A DNA stretch of 64,000 nt from Escherichia coli (GTDB lineage Bacteria; Pseudomonadota; Gammaproteobacteria; Enterobacterales; Enterobacteriaceae), in NCBI RefSeq assembly GCF_003018255.1, contig NZ_CP027440.1. One strand, 5' to 3'. Every line of letters begins with the position of its first letter. The stretch's first letter is position 1. The translations under genes were made by a program, and so were the position numbers. Below the pieces are notes generated by a model, which saw only the letters and a program-made list of their open reading frames with translations, searched no databases and was not told the origin of the DNA. Shown piece after piece: positions 1 to 10,292 of this stretch.

Positions 1-107
1 TGCTCCTGACTTAAGCTGCGCACCGACGGCAATTTCTCCCCGTGACGATACAGCCCTTGCTCAATCCGCTCGGCAAGTAGAGTCGCCAGATGTTGATAAC
101 GCGTCAT
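1..107 (-). CDS. yjiR: GntR/MocR-type transcriptional regulator, N-terminal fragment; the gene continues left of the window
   Basis: The reverse complement starts with ATG at 107 and reads MTRYQHLATLLAERIEQGLYRHGEKLPSVRSLSQE, a GntR winged-helix N-terminus. It is divergent from yjiS as in K-12 (memory). Confidence 0.7.
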   Translation of the reverse strand, partial: MTRYQHLATLLAERIEQGLYRHGEKLPSVRSLSQE

Positions 108-283
108 GCTGTATTCCTTATTTGGACCATACAGAGAGAAAAACCGGTACAGATGAGGCTAAAAAACCGGATGCAGATGCTGTTTTAACCTGTCTGTATG
201 TTAAATAAAACTAATATTTGCATCTGTATTGTGAACTGCCAGAAGACGGATGATGAAGCCTCTGAAAGATGAGGAGGCAGCAG

Positions 284-448
284 ATGGAATTTCACGAAAA
301 CAAAGCTAAAGCACCGTTTATTGGACTTGTGCAACTCTGGCAGGCAGTGAGGCGTTGGCGGCGGCAAATGCAGGCCCGGCGGGTGTTACAGCAGATGAGT
401 GATGAGCGGTTGAGGGATATTGGGTTACGCAGGGAGGATGTGGAGTGA
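284..448 (+). CDS. yjiS: DUF1127 small protein (54 aa)
   Basis: Hand translation gives MEFHENKAKAPFIGLVQLWQAVRRWRRQMQARRVLQQMSDERLRDIGLRREDVE followed by TGA. A GAGGAGG Shine-Dalgarno lies at 270-277. The ORF is below the track cutoff. Confidence 0.8.
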   Translation: MEFHENKAKAPFIGLVQLWQAVRRWRRQMQARRVLQQMSDERLRDIGLRREDVE

Positions 449-544
449 TGGGGCAGTTCGTCGCGGATAAACAGGATTTCTCTATAACCTCCACAAGGAA
501 GTGGTTATTATTGCGAAATCATCGCTTCACGGAAAGACGTCAGA

Positions 545-2638
545 ATGAAAGCTACAGAAGCCCGCCTACTCGATTTTTTAAAACGTTCGCAGCAGTTTGT
601 TATTCCCATTTATCAACGGACTTATTCATGGACAGAACAACAATGTCGGCAACTTTGGGACGACATCATTCGTGCCGGAAAGCGTGACGATATATCAGCG
701 CATTTTATCGGTTCGGTTGTTTATATAGAGCAGGGATTGTATCAGGTTTCTGGTATTTCTCCGTTGCTGGTCATTGATGGTCAACAGCGGCTGACGACCG
801 CAATGTTGCTGATTGAGGCTTTATCACGCCATCTTGGCGAAGACGAAGTTTTTGATGGCTTTTCAGCAATGAAATTGCGTAATTATTATTTACTCAATCC
901 TTATGAGTCCGGCGAGAAAGGATTTAAATTACTGCTGACCGAGACTGATAAAGACAGTTTGCTGGCGTTAATAAAACAAAGACCAATGCCAGAAAACTAT
1001 TCCCATCGAATAATGGAAAACTTTACTTTCTTTGATGAACAAATTGCCAAACTCGGTGATGACTTGATCCCCTTATGTCGTGGGTTAGCAAAGTTATTAA
1101 TTGTCGATGTGGCGCTTAATCGTGGTCAGGATAATCCGCAACTGATTTTTGAAAGTATGAACTCCACCGGTAAGGCGTTAAGTCAGGCCGATCTGGTGCG
1201 CAATTTTATTCTGATGGGCCTCGAACCAGAGCATCAAACCCGGTTGTATGAAGATCACTGGCGTCCAATGGAAGTCGCTTTTGGTCAGCAAGGTTACAGC
1301 GAATATTTTGACAGCTTTATGCGTCATTATCTGACGGTAAAAACGGGGGAGATCCCTCGGACAGATGAAGTCTATGAGGCATTTAAACTCCATGCCCGCA
1401 GCCAGAGTGTTGCTGAAAAAGGCGTAGATCGGCTGGTTGAAGATATTCACATCTACGCGGAGTATTACTGTGCAATGGCATTGGGAAAAGAAAGTGACAA
1501 ATCGCTTGCTACGGCTTTTCAGGATTTGCGCGAGTTAAAGGTCGATGTGGCATATCCTTTCTTACTGGCGCTTTATCATGACTATAAAAATGGCGATTTG
1601 CCTCACGAAGATTTCCTGAGCATAATTCGTTTAATTGAATCTTATGTTTTCCGCCGTGCAGTATGTGCGATTCCGACGAATTCTCTTAACAAGACGTTTG
1701 CCACTTTTTATAAAGTCATTAATAAAGAAAAATATCTGGAAAGTATTCAGGTACATTTTCTGAATCTGCCTTCATATCGTCGTTTCCCCAACGATGATGA
1801 ATTTAAACGGGAATTAAAAGTTCGCGATCTCTATAACTTCCGTAGTCGCAGCTACTGGTTACGACGACTGGAAAACGATAAACGCAGAGAGCGCGTGGAA
1901 GAGTTTACGATTGAGCATATTATGCCGCAGAACGAAAATCTGTCGGCTAAATGGCGCGAAGAGTTGGGAAGCGACTGGCAGCGTGTGCATAAAGAATTGT
2001 TACATACGTTGGGGAATCTCACTTTAACGCGCTATAACTCCCGCTACAGTGACAGACCTTTCGCGGAAAAACGCGATATTGAAGACGGCTTTAAGCATAG
2101 CCCGCTTTATTTGAATATCGGTCTTGGACAGTGCGAAAAATGGGATGAAGCCGCCATTCACGCCCGAGCCGATCGTCTGGCCGATCTTGCGGTTCAGGTT
2201 TGGCAAGCGCCTGCTCTTCCTGAAGAGGTTTTAGCTGTTTATCGGGCGCAGCCGGAGAACAAAACCAGTTACAGCCTGAGTGATTATCCTTTTCTTGCTG
2301 ATGGTTCGCATAGCCGGGTGTTATTTGATCATCTTCGCGATGAAGTTATGCGCCTGGACGCAGGGATCACGCAGGAAGTATTGAAGCTCTATATTGCGTT
2401 TAAAGCTGAAACGAATTTTGTTGATGTTGTGCCGCAAAAAAGCCGACTGCGATTGTCGCTTAATATGCAGTTTCATGAACTGGTCGATCCGAAAGGTATT
2501 GCCAAAGATGTGACAAATGTTGGGCGATGGGGCAATGGCGATGTGGAAATTGGTTTCAGTGACCTCGCACAACTTCCTTACATTATGGGATTAATTCGTC
2601 AGGCATTTGAAAAACAGATGGAGAACGCGTTGGTATAA
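545..2638 (+). CDS. DUF262 (ParB-like NTPase) plus DUF1524 (His-Me finger) protein, a GmrSD-family type IV restriction enzyme candidate with an extra C-terminal domain
   Basis: 697 aa ORF. The N-terminal part has the motifs IPIYQRTYSW and VIDGQQRLTT, typical of DUF262. The central part has EHIMPQN ... GNLTLTRYNSRYSDRPF, typical of the DUF1524 HNH-like nuclease. It sits where K-12 has yjiT/yjiV/mcrBC (memory). Confidence 0.8.
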   Translation: MKATEARLLDFLKRSQQFVIPIYQRTYSWTEQQCRQLWDDIIRAGKRDDISAHFIGSVVYIEQGLYQVSGISPLLVIDGQQRLTTAMLLIEALSRHLGEDEVFDGFSAMKLRNYYLLNPYESGEKGFKLLLTETDKDSLLALIKQRPMPENYSHRIMENFTFFDEQIAKLGDDLIPLCRGLAKLLIVDVALNRGQDNPQLIFESMNSTGKALSQADLVRNFILMGLEPEHQTRLYEDHWRPMEVAFGQQGYSEYFDSFMRHYLTVKTGEIPRTDEVYEAFKLHARSQSVAEKGVDRLVEDIHIYAEYYCAMALGKESDKSLATAFQDLRELKVDVAYPFLLALYHDYKNGDLPHEDFLSIIRLIESYVFRRAVCAIPTNSLNKTFATFYKVINKEKYLESIQVHFLNLPSYRRFPNDDEFKRELKVRDLYNFRSRSYWLRRLENDKRRERVEEFTIEHIMPQNENLSAKWREELGSDWQRVHKELLHTLGNLTLTRYNSRYSDRPFAEKRDIEDGFKHSPLYLNIGLGQCEKWDEAAIHARADRLADLAVQVWQAPALPEEVLAVYRAQPENKTSYSLSDYPFLADGSHSRVLFDHLRDEVMRLDAGITQEVLKLYIAFKAETNFVDVVPQKSRLRLSLNMQFHELVDPKGIAKDVTNVGRWGNGDVEIGFSDLAQLPYIMGLIRQAFEKQMENALV

Positions 2639-2651
2639 CGTGGCGAATAAT

Positions 2652-2677
2652 ACCCGGTAGCACTGGCGCTACCGGGT
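2652..2677. terminator. Bidirectional hairpin between convergent genes
   Basis: ACCCGGTAGC (2652-2661) pairs with GCTACCGGGT (2668-2677) across a 6-nt loop. It lies between the stop codons of the DUF262 gene and symE. Confidence 0.6.
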
Positions 2678-2684
2678 CAATGTA

Positions 2685-3026
2685 TCAGGCGACTTTCTGT
2701 TTACCCGCAATCACCCCAATAAATTCCCGCACCTGCTTTTGTTTACGCGCCGACAGCTTGCACACCTGGCGCAGCGACTGCATTAGCTCGCTCTCTTCGG
2801 GGGCGGGTGGTTGGGCGGTGAGGACAATACAGCCTTCCATCACTTTGACAGCTATCGCCGTGCCGGTGGCAAAACCGGCGGCTTCCAGCCACTGACCTTT
2901 CAGGGTGATGGCGGGAATACGGCTGTAATCCGGGTAGCGACTCGCATAACTCACGGTTAATTGACGGTTATTTGCCGGGGAGACTTCTGCTTCGAACGGT
3001 TGTGCAATAGAATGCGTGTCAGTCAT
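2685..3026 (-). CDS. symE: SOS-induced toxin-like protein SymE (AbrB/SpoVT fold)
   Basis: From ATG at 3026 the translation is [52 protein letters not shown]..., 113 aa, matching K-12 SymE from memory. The longer track ORF (to 3083) is probably an upstream extension. Confidence 0.9.
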
Positions 3027-3097
3027 AACTGCTATTCCTTGAAAATAGTGATTGTGATGAGCGGTGCGGGTGTGTTGGCGCACATCCGCACCGCGCT
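3021..3097 (+). ncRNA. symR: SymR antisense sRNA (type I antitoxin-like), placed by analogy
   Basis: In K-12, SymR is a 77-nt RNA antisense to the symE start and 5' UTR, beginning a few nt inside the CDS (memory). A long hairpin, GCGGTGCGG (3061-3069) with CCGCACCGC (3086-3094), ends at the predicted 3' end. Confidence 0.45.
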
Positions 3098-3101
3098 AAA
3101 T

Positions 3102-3121
3102 ACCTGGATATATCATCAGTA
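3102..3121. promoter_or_regulatory. LexA (SOS) box upstream of symE
   Basis: The sequence acCTGgatatatcatCAGta has CTG-N10-CAG with an AT-rich core and lies about 80 bp upstream of the symE start. symE is known to be LexA-regulated. Confidence 0.65.
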
Positions 3122-3246
3122 AATACAGGGAAAGTCCAGCTAAAAATTAATGAAAATAAGATAGAAGTTAGCGTGAAATATAATTTTTGGTGATGTGAAT
3201 AAAGCGGCTATTGAGCCGCTTTATTGGTTTTATGAGGGCGAGAAAA

Positions 3247-4983
3247 TTAGTTTATCGCCGCGTTAGTCAGTGCGTCTGCAAGGTGCAGTTGGGTTTGTTG
3301 GGCGGTTTTTATACGAGTTTTAAGCTTATCGCATAGTTCATGAAGTAAACCTACTTGTGAAAATATTCTATATTGTTCAGTTAATGGTGGGCATGGGAAT
3401 GAATACAACATTACACTATTTGCTGATAGGTTGGGTTGTGCTGAGCCATTATCAAAGCGGTAAATCTGTGAGCGCCCAAATGGACTGGTTAAATAATTAT
3501 AAATATACCCTCCCATTTCTGTGATAAATGGTCTAATGATCATTAGTGATGAGGCAATAGCTCCTGTTTCATAGGGGGTTACAAAGGCAGTTTTACCAAA
3601 AGTTGCTCCTCGTAGGCAATAAACCAAATCACCTTTTTGAATTTTCCCACTTCTTAATTCATTAAATTTTCCTTCGGTTATAAAATTCATTTCTGTAACC
3701 GTAAGTGTACCATTTTTTTCTATATGTCCAGTATTGATCCAAGGAATACCTTGAGAAACATACTCATTTTTATTGGGATAATTACTTCCACGATCGCCAT
3801 TTATAAACTCTGATGTTAAACCAAATTTACACCACTCCCACCCTTCCGGCAGTTCAAACGGTTTTTCCTCATTGCTAATTGGCGGTAGTGGTTTTTGTTT
3901 TTTTATTTTCCCTTCTTTCACCAGTTGAGCTTTTTCCTGCGCAATTCGTTTGAGCAGTTCAGAGGCGGGTTCGTCATTCGGATCCTGCGGCACAAGTTTA
4001 CCCATTACGGCCAGTTGAAGAATGGTCTGTTTTAACGCATCCACGCTGGCTTCGGTGGTAAATAGGGTGTCGAAATGCTCGCTAATACGCGCCCAGTTTT
4101 CAGCCAGTTCCTCGGCGTTTTGGCTGTCTGTAAGCGTTCCCAACAGGGTTTCAACCAGTTGCTGATGTGCGTCCAGACTGGTCAGGGATTGCTGTTCCAG
4201 TTGGTCGCAGAGAACTGTAAGTTCTCTGATTTTTCTGACAATTTGTTGTTGTTCATTTATAGGCGGTAAAGCGATTATCTGTTGTTCCATTTTTTCTTTA
4301 GTCATATGGAGCATTGCAATACCGTTACCTTGCGATTTTATTTTATCTGTAATGGATAAAAGAAAATCATGTATAAAATATTTGTTTGAGTACTCTTCTG
4401 CAAATAAATTTAATTTCCATATATGGTAGTGATAAATTACTTTTTCTCCTGTCCAAATGAATGGCCCAAAAGATGCGGACCAAGCGTATATTAAATCACC
4501 ATTATTTATATATTTGTTTTCGTCTAATTGGAGGTCAGAGTAATACCACTCATTTGATGTGAATAGATTACCAACACGCAGCAAAGGAGTGCCTGTTTGA
4601 AGCATTTCATGTTTTTTATATGCTCGACCGTTAATAACCTCCATGAGATCTGCAACCCGCACCCACTCCCATCCCTCCGGCAATTCAAACGGCTTCTCTT
4701 CCTCGCTAATTCCTGGCAGTGGTTTTTGCTTTTTAATTTTACCTTGCTTCACCAGCTCTGCTTTTTCCGCAGCAATACGCTTCAGCAGCTCCGACGCCGG
4801 TTCATCATTCGGATCCTGCGGCACCAGTTTACCGCGCACCGCCAGTTCCAGAATCAGCTCACGCAATTTCTTAATGCCATACAAATCAATTTTACCGGAA
4901 CTGCCGCGCCCGGCGGTGGAACGGGTTTGCAACGCCGAGGTCCAGGTTTCCATATGATCAACGATCAGCTTTTCCACACTCAT
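3247..4983 (-). CDS. hsdS: Type I restriction-modification specificity subunit HsdS (578 aa, two TRDs)
   Basis: Two variable AT-rich target-recognition regions alternate with two near-identical conserved blocks (LAV.GKLVPQDPNDEPASELLKRIA.EKA.LVK.GKIKKQKPLP.IS.EEKPFELPEGWEW). The start ATG overlaps the hsdM stop by 1 nt (TGATG at 4981-4985). Confidence 0.92.
   Translation of the reverse strand: MSVEKLIVDHMETWTSALQTRSTAGRGSSGKIDLYGIKKLRELILELAVRGKLVPQDPNDEPASELLKRIAAEKAELVKQGKIKKQKPLPGISEEEKPFELPEGWEWVRVADLMEVINGRAYKKHEMLQTGTPLLRVGNLFTSNEWYYSDLQLDENKYINNGDLIYAWSASFGPFIWTGEKVIYHYHIWKLNLFAEEYSNKYFIHDFLLSITDKIKSQGNGIAMLHMTKEKMEQQIIALPPINEQQQIVRKIRELTVLCDQLEQQSLTSLDAHQQLVETLLGTLTDSQNAEELAENWARISEHFDTLFTTEASVDALKQTILQLAVMGKLVPQDPNDEPASELLKRIAQEKAQLVKEGKIKKQKPLPPISNEEKPFELPEGWEWCKFGLTSEFINGDRGSNYPNKNEYVSQGIPWINTGHIEKNGTLTVTEMNFITEGKFNELRSGKIQKGDLVYCLRGATFGKTAFVTPYETGAIASSLMIIRPFITEMGGYIYNYLTSPFGRSQIYRFDNGSAQPNLSANSVMLYSFPCPPLTEQYRIFSQVGLLHELCDKLKTRIKTAQQTQLHLADALTNAAIN
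3835..4016. repeat. hsdS internal direct repeat, copy 1 (conserved-region DNA)
   Basis: An imperfect direct repeat of about 180 bp matching 4664-4848, for example ...ttcggatcctgcggcac.agtttacc... . It encodes the duplicated HsdS conserved region. Confidence 0.8.
4664..4848. repeat. hsdS internal direct repeat, copy 2
   Basis: Partner of 3835-4016, offset by about 830 bp. Confidence 0.8.
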
Positions 4984-8951: not shown

Positions 8952-9091
8952 GGGGTGTTCTCATCTAAATGCGATGCGTAAATTCTACACAGAAAAATAG
9001 ATGAATTCATCTGTTCAAAGAGTATTATCAGCGTTAAGTCACTGTTTTAAAGGTATTCTTGAGTTTCATCAATAGCTGGATAAGGATTCAT

Positions 9092-10060
9092 ATGGAGAAT
9101 GTTCGGTTCTTGCAAGGAGTGAAACAATATTTTTGTACTAAGGCATTAGATGTCATTCTGCTAATTTATCTACTCCTTGGTTTTATACTTCTCCCTTATA
9201 AATATCTGTGGAAAGATATTATTTTATCTCTGTACTTTGTTGGTATTCTTCTTTATGCATTAGTGGAAGAAAATCGCATTGCAGAATATATGGGGTATTT
9301 TGTTAAGTTCAGTAATAAAAACAGGTTGAATAGTTGTGCTGCCTGGTGTTCACTTATTGCATGGTTTATATTTTTGTTTTTTGTGCTTTCAATTAATATT
9401 TTTCCAGTCAGTGCCTCTGTATATATTTTTAGTGCTTTTTCATTATTTGTTTTTCTGGGGGGTATTTTTATTATATTAGAGTTAGAGTTTAAAGAAAATA
9501 AAAAATTAATGATTATTAGGTCTGTGACTATAGCAGTCATGCCAATTATATATTTATTCACAAGTAGTTATGCTTCCAGTTTATTTTTAAGTTTGAGTAA
9601 TCTAAACATTACGCTAACTCCATGGGTTGAGTATTTCTGGAAAGGGATGGTTTTTATGTTGCTTTTCTTCATGTTAATGCAACTTATTATCTATTTTGCT
9701 TTTTTAACTCTGGGGACTAAATTAAGTGTGTATAGGTTGTTTATACTTGCCGGAGCATTTGTAGTATCTACTTTTTTAGTGGCTTTTGCTTTAAAAAATG
9801 TAGAAGGTATTTCGTACTACGTTTTAAAAAGCACCATAGATTTTGAATGGCGTAATCAGATTAAATGTGGCCAGTTGAATATTTCACGTTCGAATGAAAA
9901 GTATTTTGGGTTTAATACTGATAAATATACTGTATTTTATTCCGGCAGAGATGGTAAATGGGGCTTTGATGAGTTGAAATGTAAGAAAGGTTCTGACAGG
10001 AGAGATGCATATTCTATTGAGAATGTCTCAGAATATAACGTGCCTGGATGGCTGAAATAA
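9092..10060 (+). CDS. Orphan AT-rich polytopic membrane protein (about 7 TM) with a roughly 75-aa soluble C-terminal domain, function unknown
   Basis: ORF with AAGGA 5 nt upstream of ATG 9092; the track start at 9059 is TTG. It has seven hydrophobic stretches, then ...DFEWRNQIKCGQLNISRSNEKYFGFNTDKYTVFYSGRDGKWGFDELKCKKG... . Sampled lines are about 28-30% GC against about 50% in the flanks. It occupies the K-12 mrr position (memory). Confidence 0.7.
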   Translation: MENVRFLQGVKQYFCTKALDVILLIYLLLGFILLPYKYLWKDIILSLYFVGILLYALVEENRIAEYMGYFVKFSNKNRLNSCAAWCSLIAWFIFLFFVLSINIFPVSASVYIFSAFSLFVFLGGIFIILELEFKENKKLMIIRSVTIAVMPIIYLFTSSYASSLFLSLSNLNITLTPWVEYFWKGMVFMLLFFMLMQLIIYFAFLTLGTKLSVYRLFILAGAFVVSTFLVAFALKNVEGISYYVLKSTIDFEWRNQIKCGQLNISRSNEKYFGFNTDKYTVFYSGRDGKWGFDELKCKKGSDRRDAYSIENVSEYNVPGWLK

Positions 10061-10166
10061 GTCATCTTTATAAATTATATAGTAAAGGTTCTGGTCATAA
10101 ACGAGCATAGTTAAACATAAACGGGGCATACTCCACACACTTGATGTGCAGCAAGAAGTTGAACTC

Positions 10167-10292
10167 ATGGCTTTGGTTAATAAATCTGACGAAGATATTG
10201 ATTACAGCGACATTCCTGCGTCTGGTAGCGAAGCATGGGCTGACGCCACACGCGGCAATTTTTTGCCAGATCCAGGTATTCACGCGCAATAA
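10167..10292 (+). pseudogene. Truncated BrnA/DUF4415-like antitoxin fragment (41 codons)
   Basis: Hand translation gives MALVNKSDEDIDYSDIPASGSEAWADATRGNFLPDPGIHAQ followed by a stop. The motif DEDIDYSDIP...W..A.RG.F is as I remember DUF4415. There is no RHH C-terminus and no adjacent BrnT. Confidence 0.35.

Follow-up and report, generated by a model that had tools for sequence, protein, structure and literature searches.

Architecture of the gene and its protein

A stretch of 64,000 nucleotides (nt) from the Escherichia coli contig NZ_CP027440.1 (assembly GCF_003018255.1), referred to here as the window, carries near its start a gene that we call GmrSD-DUF5655 after the domains of its product. 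The gene is a single open reading frame (ORF) of 697 amino acids (aa), which begins with ATG, lies at 545-2638 on the + strand and contains zero internal stop codons according to the ORF list and its retranslation. Taken as a whole, the material below makes it likely that the product is a single-chain defence nuclease of the GmrSD family in which DUF5655 serves as an accessory module. The features of the gene and its immediate surroundings are the following.

545..2638 (including the stop codon), + strand: coding sequence of GmrSD-DUF5655 (ORF list; exact protein public)
569..1210, + strand: GmrSD_N/DUF262, the ParB-like NTPase/sensor domain, residues 9-222 (Pfam PF03235, E = 6e-35)
776..790, + strand: DGQQR nucleotide-hydrolysis motif, D78-R82 (sequence reading; invariant in 56 homologues)
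1211..1786, + strand: alpha-helical linker, residues 223-414 (full-length AlphaFold2 (AF2) model)
1787..2185, + strand: GmrSD_C/DUF1524, the His-Me finger nuclease domain, residues 415-547 (Pfam PF07510, E = 9e-27)
1913..1933, + strand: EHIMPQN catalytic motif, residues 457-463 with E457 and H458 (sequence reading; invariant columns)
2210..2314, + strand: variable hinge, residues 556-590 (40-49% identity; low predicted local distance difference test (pLDDT) values)
2315..2614, + strand: DUF5655 domain (PF18899), residues 591-690 (Pfam E = 1e-13)
454..2688, no strand: cassette differing from K-12, with its own 5' leader, the gene and a 3' spacer (blastn of 1-3300 against the K-12 locus)
1345..1349, + strand: homopolymer of five G (G5; G4 in O157:H7) (alignment with EDL933; 63-mer counts)

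A preliminary description of this DNA, prepared from the sequence alone, had proposed an intact GmrSD-family (DUF262-DUF1524) protein in which both catalytic motifs are present. This holds, as the uninterrupted ORF matches both PF03235 and PF07510, and the three Pfam domains of the protein do not overlap and each score above their curated cut-off. The stretch VIDGQQRLTT holds D78-R82, and GNLTLTRYN corresponds to G490-N498. Far from being degenerate on alignment, the motifs are strictly kept: D78, G79, Q80, Q81, R82, E457, H458, P461, Q462, N463, N491 and N498 are all invariant across 56 aligned full-length homologues. In sequence and model, the protein thus has the structural hallmarks of the family, namely a DUF262 domain with DGQQR, a DUF1524 domain with (D/E)H...N...N and a long helical linker within a single chain. 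The linker helices run continuously over approximately residues 228-426 in the full-length AF2 model, with pLDDT mostly between 80 and 96. The ATG at 545 is supported as the start because the N-terminus MKATEA is kept across phyla in the alignment of homologues. Among the PADLOC models, 'Orf5' (PDLC02693) matches residues 10-553 at 3.8e-223 and the HEC-06 model (PDLC04155) matches residues 8-555 at 2.3e-67.

The additional C-terminal part of about 140 aa is real as well. It consists of the hinge of about 35 aa (556-590) and a folded domain of about 107 aa, which the hinge joins to the core. The preliminary description had considered this tail unexplained by the two core domains; a separate domain it is, although one that Pfam already lists as DUF5655 and that is fixed in a large conserved subfamily. 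The DUF5655 match amounts to 51.6 bits in the whole protein and 55.2 bits with the tail alone, against a Pfam cut-off of 24. That the region has its own fold is indicated, in addition to this Pfam match, by a confident AF2 model of residues 556-697 (96 sequences; mean pLDDT 87.7), in which a helix is followed by a four-stranded sheet, a long loop with a near-invariant GRWGNGD, a fifth strand and a long C-terminal helix. The hinge has low pLDDT at residues 570-574 of the full-length model, in agreement with a low block at residues 11-20 of the domain model.

A comparison with four homologues (71-77% amino-acid identity, synonymous sites saturated) points to strong purifying selection in all three domains. 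DUF5655 itself keeps 73-81% amino-acid identity despite the saturation of synonymous sites, with a ratio of nonsynonymous to synonymous substitution rates (dN/dS) of 0.03-0.08 where this could be estimated. The hinge, on the other hand, falls to 40-49% identity versus 65-85% in the flanking domains. Because DUF5655 is constrained while the hinge varies, the tail appears to be a functional unit on a flexible tether. K620, W662, N664 and Y679 are invariant in DUF5655, which is mildly acidic (isoelectric point (pI) 5.6) and combines the conserved K614, K620, R634, R636, R661 and R685 with many conserved acidic and aromatic residues.

Structural comparison places the DUF5655 model closest to a YdhG-like protein (9t2w, figure 9.9), DR2400 (DUF419; 2a1v, figure 9.0) and E. 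coli YjbR (2fki, figure 9.0), followed by frataxin/CyaY (about 6.5), the C-terminal domain of T4 MotA (6.4) and type III secretion chaperones (about 5-6). An immunity protein also falls within the matched fold group. The alpha/beta model can be superposed on YjbR, YdhG and the MotA C-terminal domain. The YdhG-like protein (DUF1801), DR2400, YjbR (DUF419, MmcQ/YjbR) and the MotA domain nevertheless share only 3-15% identity with DUF5655, their functions are heterogeneous, and the comparison established no active-site or binding residues in common. YjbR and the MotA C-terminal domain have been described as 'double-wing' DNA-binding folds. The modelled fold suggests a binding module, with the ligand left unspecified, and the specificity or sensor role that the preliminary description had put forward for the tail may be called reasonable on these grounds.

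DUF5655 also occurs in other architectures. It is the last domain in a SLOG-cluster3 fusion protein (P0335) and in a D5_N-like protein (P0386), whereas in P0245 three tandem copies stand behind GmrSD_C. The C-terminus of the PADLOC candidate PDC-S18 matches the tail (1e-25, tail alone), and a search of BFVD showed that a few phage proteins carry the domain too. A search with the tail only returned just short proteins, mostly fragments of the same family or calls from internal methionines (e.g., 188-aa 'MKGGF...' ORFs), and these are uninformative on architecture.

The immigration control region and the spread of the gene in E. coli

In the window, homology to K-12 is limited to 1-453 and 2689-3147 (blastn of 1-3300 against the K-12 locus). 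Between yjiS and symE, a cassette of 2.2 kilobases (kb) stands for 7.6 kb of K-12 yjiT-yjiV'-mcrC-mcrB, so the gene does sit in place of the McrBC system, as had been noticed from the start. The accompanying idea that it is the intact form of the K-12 pseudogene yjiT has to be given up: BLASTP against YjiT gives E = 0.19, and YjiT is without a Pfam domain. An identity with yjiT or yjiV was likewise rejected by tblastn over the whole K-12 locus, which returned nothing better than E = 0.2.

The gene is 100% identical in its DNA to that of E. coli 2014C-3338, where the order reads yjiR, yjiS, GmrSD-DUF5655, symE, hsdS, hsdM, hsdR, two hypotheticals and yjiA. The hsdSMR genes are on the opposite strand to GmrSD-DUF5655, with symE in between, and the HsdR of the locus belongs to the EcoAI family and has an EcoEI_R_C domain. 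The symE gene itself (SymE_toxin domain; 2685-3026, - strand) is convergent with GmrSD-DUF5655, 46 nt separating the two stop codons. Nothing resembling a terminator was detected in this interval, and a promoter/terminator scan of 1-3300 yielded the same counts as shuffled sequence. The gene does not lie inside the hsd operon with a DUF262-only partner, as in the TgvAB type, and the window holds no partner gene. No dnd or ssp genes (dndBCDE, sspABCD) are annotated in the near-identical strain 2014C-3338 over the 64 kb that match the window.

Among 5426 complete E. coli genomes, 1480 contain a match and 1360 of these cover at least 80% of the gene; some genomes retain just 75-327 nt. About one complete E. 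coli genome in four thus carries GmrSD-DUF5655, and no other GmrSD-type gene is as common in Enterobacteria. The identical 697-aa protein can be found in public databases (e.g., BDW62173.1, 'DUF262 domain-containing protein') and occurs on 546 contigs, and the cluster at 90% identity around it comprises 3852 sequences.

Not all copies are in frame. The allele of O157:H7 EDL933 is one base shorter, with G4 for G5, which breaks the frame near codon 268 and leaves separate proteins of 293 aa ('DUF262') and 387 aa ('GmrSD'). In the O157:H7 lineage G4 inactivates the gene. Matching 63-mers at no less than 99% identity were counted in complete E. coli genomes, giving 923 genomes with G5 and 298 with G4, so that the site of the O157 frameshift is in frame in about 17% of them. 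Strain TR01, whose record is labelled O157:H7, has G5.

The intact ORF is itself split in RefSeq/PGAP, which lists a DUF262 fragment ('pseudo, missing C-terminus'; the first 606 nt) and a 387-aa coding sequence from M311, while approximately 320 nt in the middle of the gene (1151-1474) are left unannotated. The same split is seen in 2014C-3338 and ATCC 8739, both with intact ORFs, and five further genomes show no annotated feature at the mid-gene 63-mer site (going by the annotation). Since the DNA is 100% identical to an open frame, this split is an annotation artefact, one that apparently stems from the frameshifted O157 protein models. As intact copies are annotated as a fragment plus a 387-aa protein, gene-content surveys will under-call the gene.

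ATCC 8739 also differs in the surroundings of the gene. Its GmrSD-DUF5655 ORF is intact with 7 aa differences, but hsdM is truncated by an insertion sequence (IS3), hsdR is missing and a different 551-aa DUF262 protein stands beside yjiA (L087, 13460-17225). As the ORF stays intact in spite of these losses, the putative nuclease is tolerated without the neighbouring methylase. A second E. coli allele or paralogue, WP_000648214 (699 aa, 76% amino-acid identity), is located elsewhere in the immigration control region. In E. coli 1002W03 (L004, 7001-10319) it adjoins another type I system with a divergent hsdM; genes for a Fic-family protein and a BrnA antitoxin come after it.

Relatives across phyla and known systems

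The best 120 database matches share 69-98% identity with the protein and all have the same three Pfam domains. A wider scan, taking one genome per species, led to 588 confirmed relatives, the best 80 of which are at least 62% identical and keep the three-domain architecture of about 700 aa. These 80 are found in Gamma-, Alpha- and Deltaproteobacteria, Cyanobacteria, Planctomycetota, Acidobacteriota, Actinomycetota, Chloroflexota, Bacillota, Spirochaetota, Bacteroidota, Gemmatimonadota and Atribacteria, and also in archaeal metagenome-assembled genomes of Methanosaeta and Methanococcoides. Full-length copies are present on cyanobacterial and roseobacter plasmids and are rare in phage records.

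To describe their context, ORFs were called in the fetched loci and searched with hidden Markov models built from HsdM, HsdS and HsdR; counts refer to the 49 loci whose flanks measure at least 3 kb on both sides. A gene of a type I restriction-modification (R-M) system lies within 8 kb in 32 of the 49 loci and is adjacent and co-oriented in 23. Twelve homologues are sandwiched inside the operon at one of two positions, either between hsdM and hsdS (8/49) or between hsdS and hsdR (4/49), and they often share 4-nt overlaps with their neighbours at both start and stop. Among homologues at least 62% identical, which come from many bacterial phyla and two methanogen metagenome-assembled genomes, the first position is seen in L025, L032, L038, L052, L056, L058, L061, L070 and L082, and the second in L005 (8001-10103), L048, L062, L069 and L077. 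In Kiritimatiella, for example, hsdS and hsdR flank the gene, and stop and start codons overlap. No conserved single partner gene emerged where type I R-M genes are missing (36 loci); only small groups recur there: DUF499 with DUF1156 (Hma-like), type III Mod/Res, a C5-methylase, Schlafen/AlbA_2 and polA.

Some metagenomic proteins (P0326, P0328, P0332 and P0275) show HsdS or HsdM joined to the rear of a GmrSD-DUF5655 protein, or internal deletions. HsdS-DUF5655 and HsdM-GmrSD_C-DUF5655 proteins were considered as Rosetta-stone evidence for an interaction with Hsd subunits and rejected: because their junctions carry the tail of GmrSD_C or begin in the middle of a motif ('NYTIEHIMPQN'), they are deletion chimeras rather than evolved fusions. 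Judging by these junctions, the four proteins look like deletion scars of the embedded arrangement between hsdM and hsdS.

Databases and the literature already contain the gene, its locus arrangement and its domain architecture. The orthologue was listed by He et al. (2015) as a GmrSD homologue that replaces mcrBC in the immigration control region, and they found APECO1_2080, the homologue in that region, 24% identical to Eco94GmrSD; an EcoSal review from 2025 repeats this account. According to the text of Silas et al. (2025; PMC12373910), enterobacterial DUF262 proteins form clusters of which CLS_001 is the largest, with both O157 halves, WP_106423460 and WP_000648214 among its members. WP_106423460 is the 387-aa piece annotated in 2014C-3338, whose DNA is identical to the window. 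The same text reports that representatives of 15 groups were synthesised and tried on T2, T4 and T6, with five further systems found active (Silas et al. 2025). What He et al. and Silas et al. describe is the same family at the same locus beside hsd, replacing mcrBC, and differs in nothing essential. Both papers treat the protein as DUF262 plus DUF1524 and leave the DUF5655 tail undiscussed, and the term 'DUF5655' is absent from the searched supplementary files of Silas et al. A full-text literature search for it returned one paper only, which is unrelated. Machnicka et al. (2015) mentioned extra C-terminal domains in some GmrSD homologues (DUF4268, DUF4357), a list that does not include DUF5655.

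The best match among solved structures is DndI (PDB 9JFL; E = 6e-13 by sequence and E = 6e-13 by Foldseek, the latter over about 620 alignment columns), with SspE coming next. DndI is a Salmonella ATPase/nickase of the GmrSD family (DUF262-DUF1524) that spares self DNA marked with phosphorothioate (PT). The two proteins have in common a DUF262 domain with DGQQR, the helical body, the His-Me nuclease and an N-terminal P-x-Y-Q-R motif, but DndI shows about 17-18% identity, measures 596 aa without DUF5655 and works with dndBCDE, none of which is annotated here. HEC-06 (Payne et al. 2024, preprint) is a GmrSD-like phage defence embedded in Hma, just as some GmrSD-DUF5655 homologues adjoin Hma-like genes, and its defence is lost in the Q79A/R80A and E471A/H472A variants. 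Those residues are the counterparts of Q81/R82 and E457/H458 within the same DGQQR and EHxxP motifs, and the DGQQR-equivalent residues are required in HEC-06 as well as in DndI. HEC-06 models, however, end at about 560 aa without DUF5655, and the window protein fits PADLOC 'Orf5' far better.

Eco94GmrSD/CT596 GmrSD and BrxU belong to the same two-domain family and are also single-gene defences, with modification-dependent cleavage stimulated by nucleoside triphosphate (NTP). They are very distant, lack DUF5655 and come from a prophage or BREX context; neither is among the sequence matches in the PDB. The substrates named in the preliminary description, i.e., glucosylated hydroxymethylcytosine (glc-hmC), hydroxymethylcytosine (hmC) and PT-associated DNA, are those of other family members. 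Type I operons with an embedded GmrSD-like gene are themselves a published theme ('guilt by embedding'). TgvAB (Vibrio cholerae VPI-2) and RloF (Campylobacter) lie inside hsd operons as many of the homologues do, the latter each as a single gene, whereas TgvAB consists of two proteins and GmrSD-DUF5655 is one chain that here stands beside the hsd operon rather than inside it.

Predicted role and competing explanations

What the analysis shows are the domain identities, the intact motifs, purifying selection on all three domains, a tail that folds separately, the genomic position and a link to R-M systems; from these we infer, with differing confidence, a nuclease activity, its control by NTP, a kind of substrate and a role for DUF5655. 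That GmrSD-DUF5655 is a defence nuclease is very probable. The DUF262 domain would bind and hydrolyse NTP through DGQQR and so act as switch or sensor, while the helical linker would connect it to the His-Me finger of DUF1524 (E457/H458, N491, N498), which is expected to nick or cut DNA. We are about evenly divided on whether the target is modified DNA. The hinged DUF5655 may help to select or hold this target, with nucleic acid or a modified base as the most likely and a protein partner as the less likely ligand; that DUF5655 binds nucleic acid or a modified base is nonetheless something that we propose tentatively, with a little less conviction than we have regarding the target. The E. coli copy is a self-contained cassette, presumably one of the interchangeable defence genes of the immigration control region; elsewhere the same protein travels with R-M operons that include a methyltransferase, either within them or alongside. 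There it most probably attacks incoming DNA on which classical restriction fails, for instance hypermodified phage DNA.

Several points weigh against this picture. DndI, the nearest relative with a solved structure, has unmodified DNA as its target, and what it reads is a mark of the host rather than a modification of the phage. An identity of at least 62% across phyla (among the best 80 of the 588 relatives) appears unusually high for an enzyme engaged in an arms race. The acidity of DUF5655 and its conserved acidic and aromatic residues are not the signature that one would expect of a generic binder of the DNA backbone, and the fold alone leaves the function unfixed because frataxin/CyaY and secretion chaperones belong to the same fold family. 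In the full-length AF2 model the N-terminal domain is poorly predicted, pLDDT lying below 50 over residues 1-28, 55-79, 116-134 and 187-211. Finally, Silas et al. name the active groups only in figures.

In one alternative, the same nuclease core carries DUF5655 as a protein-interaction or regulatory module (for autoinhibition, oligomerisation, docking to R-M subunits or the sensing of phage proteins), comparable to PrrC, which is checked by EcoprrI. Secretion chaperones, frataxin/CyaY and an immunity protein in the fold group speak for such a module, as do the acidic domain with its conserved aromatic and acidic patches, its flexible hinge and the embedding in type I R-M operons that parallels PrrC. 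Yet the best structural matches are the YdhG-like protein, DR2400 and YjbR, with the MotA C-terminal domain also among them, and the tandem triplication in P0245 is more typical of repeats that bind ligands or DNA. Many loci are devoid of type I R-M genes, and the apparent fusions of HsdS or HsdM with DUF5655 turned out to be deletion chimeras of operons in which the gene lies between hsdM and hsdS. We regard this explanation as rather unlikely, although it deserves serious attention. That the locus is a remnant in decay and no longer functional in this strain is, by contrast, hardly credible. This idea could draw on the frameshift in 298 genomes of the O157:H7 lineage, on the genomes that are down to 75-327 nt of the gene and on the RefSeq label of pseudogene fragment plus shorter coding sequence, given even to intact copies; but that label is an artefact on DNA 100% identical to an open frame, the ORF is complete here with all catalytic residues intact, every domain is under strongly purifying selection, the in-frame G5 is kept at the O157 frameshift site in 923 genomes and the exact protein recurs on 546 contigs.

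The other option is an effector coupled to a host mark in the manner of DndI/SspE. It would scan DNA, be switched by an epigenetic mark that the neighbouring methyltransferase writes (e.g., N6-methyladenine (m6A) from HsdMS) and DUF5655 or DUF262 reads, and attack foreign DNA without the mark. DndI, the closest solved relative, indeed uses host PT marks to spare self, and homologues are translationally coupled within operons, between hsdM and hsdS or between hsdS and hsdR, or otherwise tend to adjoin other methyltransferases; the very high conservation would also fit a target free of co-evolution with phage inhibitors. We nevertheless find it quite improbable, as a type I gene is lacking within 8 kb at 17 of the 49 well-flanked loci, HsdS specificities vary whereas the GmrSD-DUF5655 protein hardly does, and the gene of the window is opposite in strand to hsdSMR with symE in between. 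The ATCC 8739 ORF, moreover, has stayed intact despite an IS3-truncated hsdM and a lost hsdR, and the annotation of 2014C-3338 has no dnd or ssp genes over the corresponding 64 kb. A long shot is the related reading in which DUF5655 is a hitherto unrecognised reader of a DNA mark or modified base and couples the highly conserved nuclease, as a second restriction effector, to the methyltransferase-containing R-M operon that carries it. Self and non-self would then be told apart by the methylation that the neighbour makes or by hypermodified bases, not by sequence, and the E. coli copy would be a free-standing derivative.

For the favoured reading, a GmrSD-family defence nuclease with an accessory DUF5655, the position of the gene would have practical consequences. 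As it occupies the slot of McrBC in K-12, it probably shapes which phages and which modified DNA these strains accept, a matter of relevance to phage therapy as well as to cloning in wild strains. The embedding of its relatives in type I R-M operons, on the other hand, raises the question of hitch-hiking as well as that of functional coupling.

The window holds one further gene of possible interest. At the position of K-12 mrr, in an island of 30% GC between hsdR and yjiA, the ORF at 9059-10060 (+ strand; ATG at 9092) is predicted to encode a hypothetical protein of 322-333 aa, most of it very hydrophobic and its C-terminal part less so, for which neither Pfam nor PADLOC gave a match. This ORF, with a 63-aa hypothetical annotated just downstream at 10101-10292, may likewise belong to the cargo of the immigration control region, as a gene so far uncharacterised.

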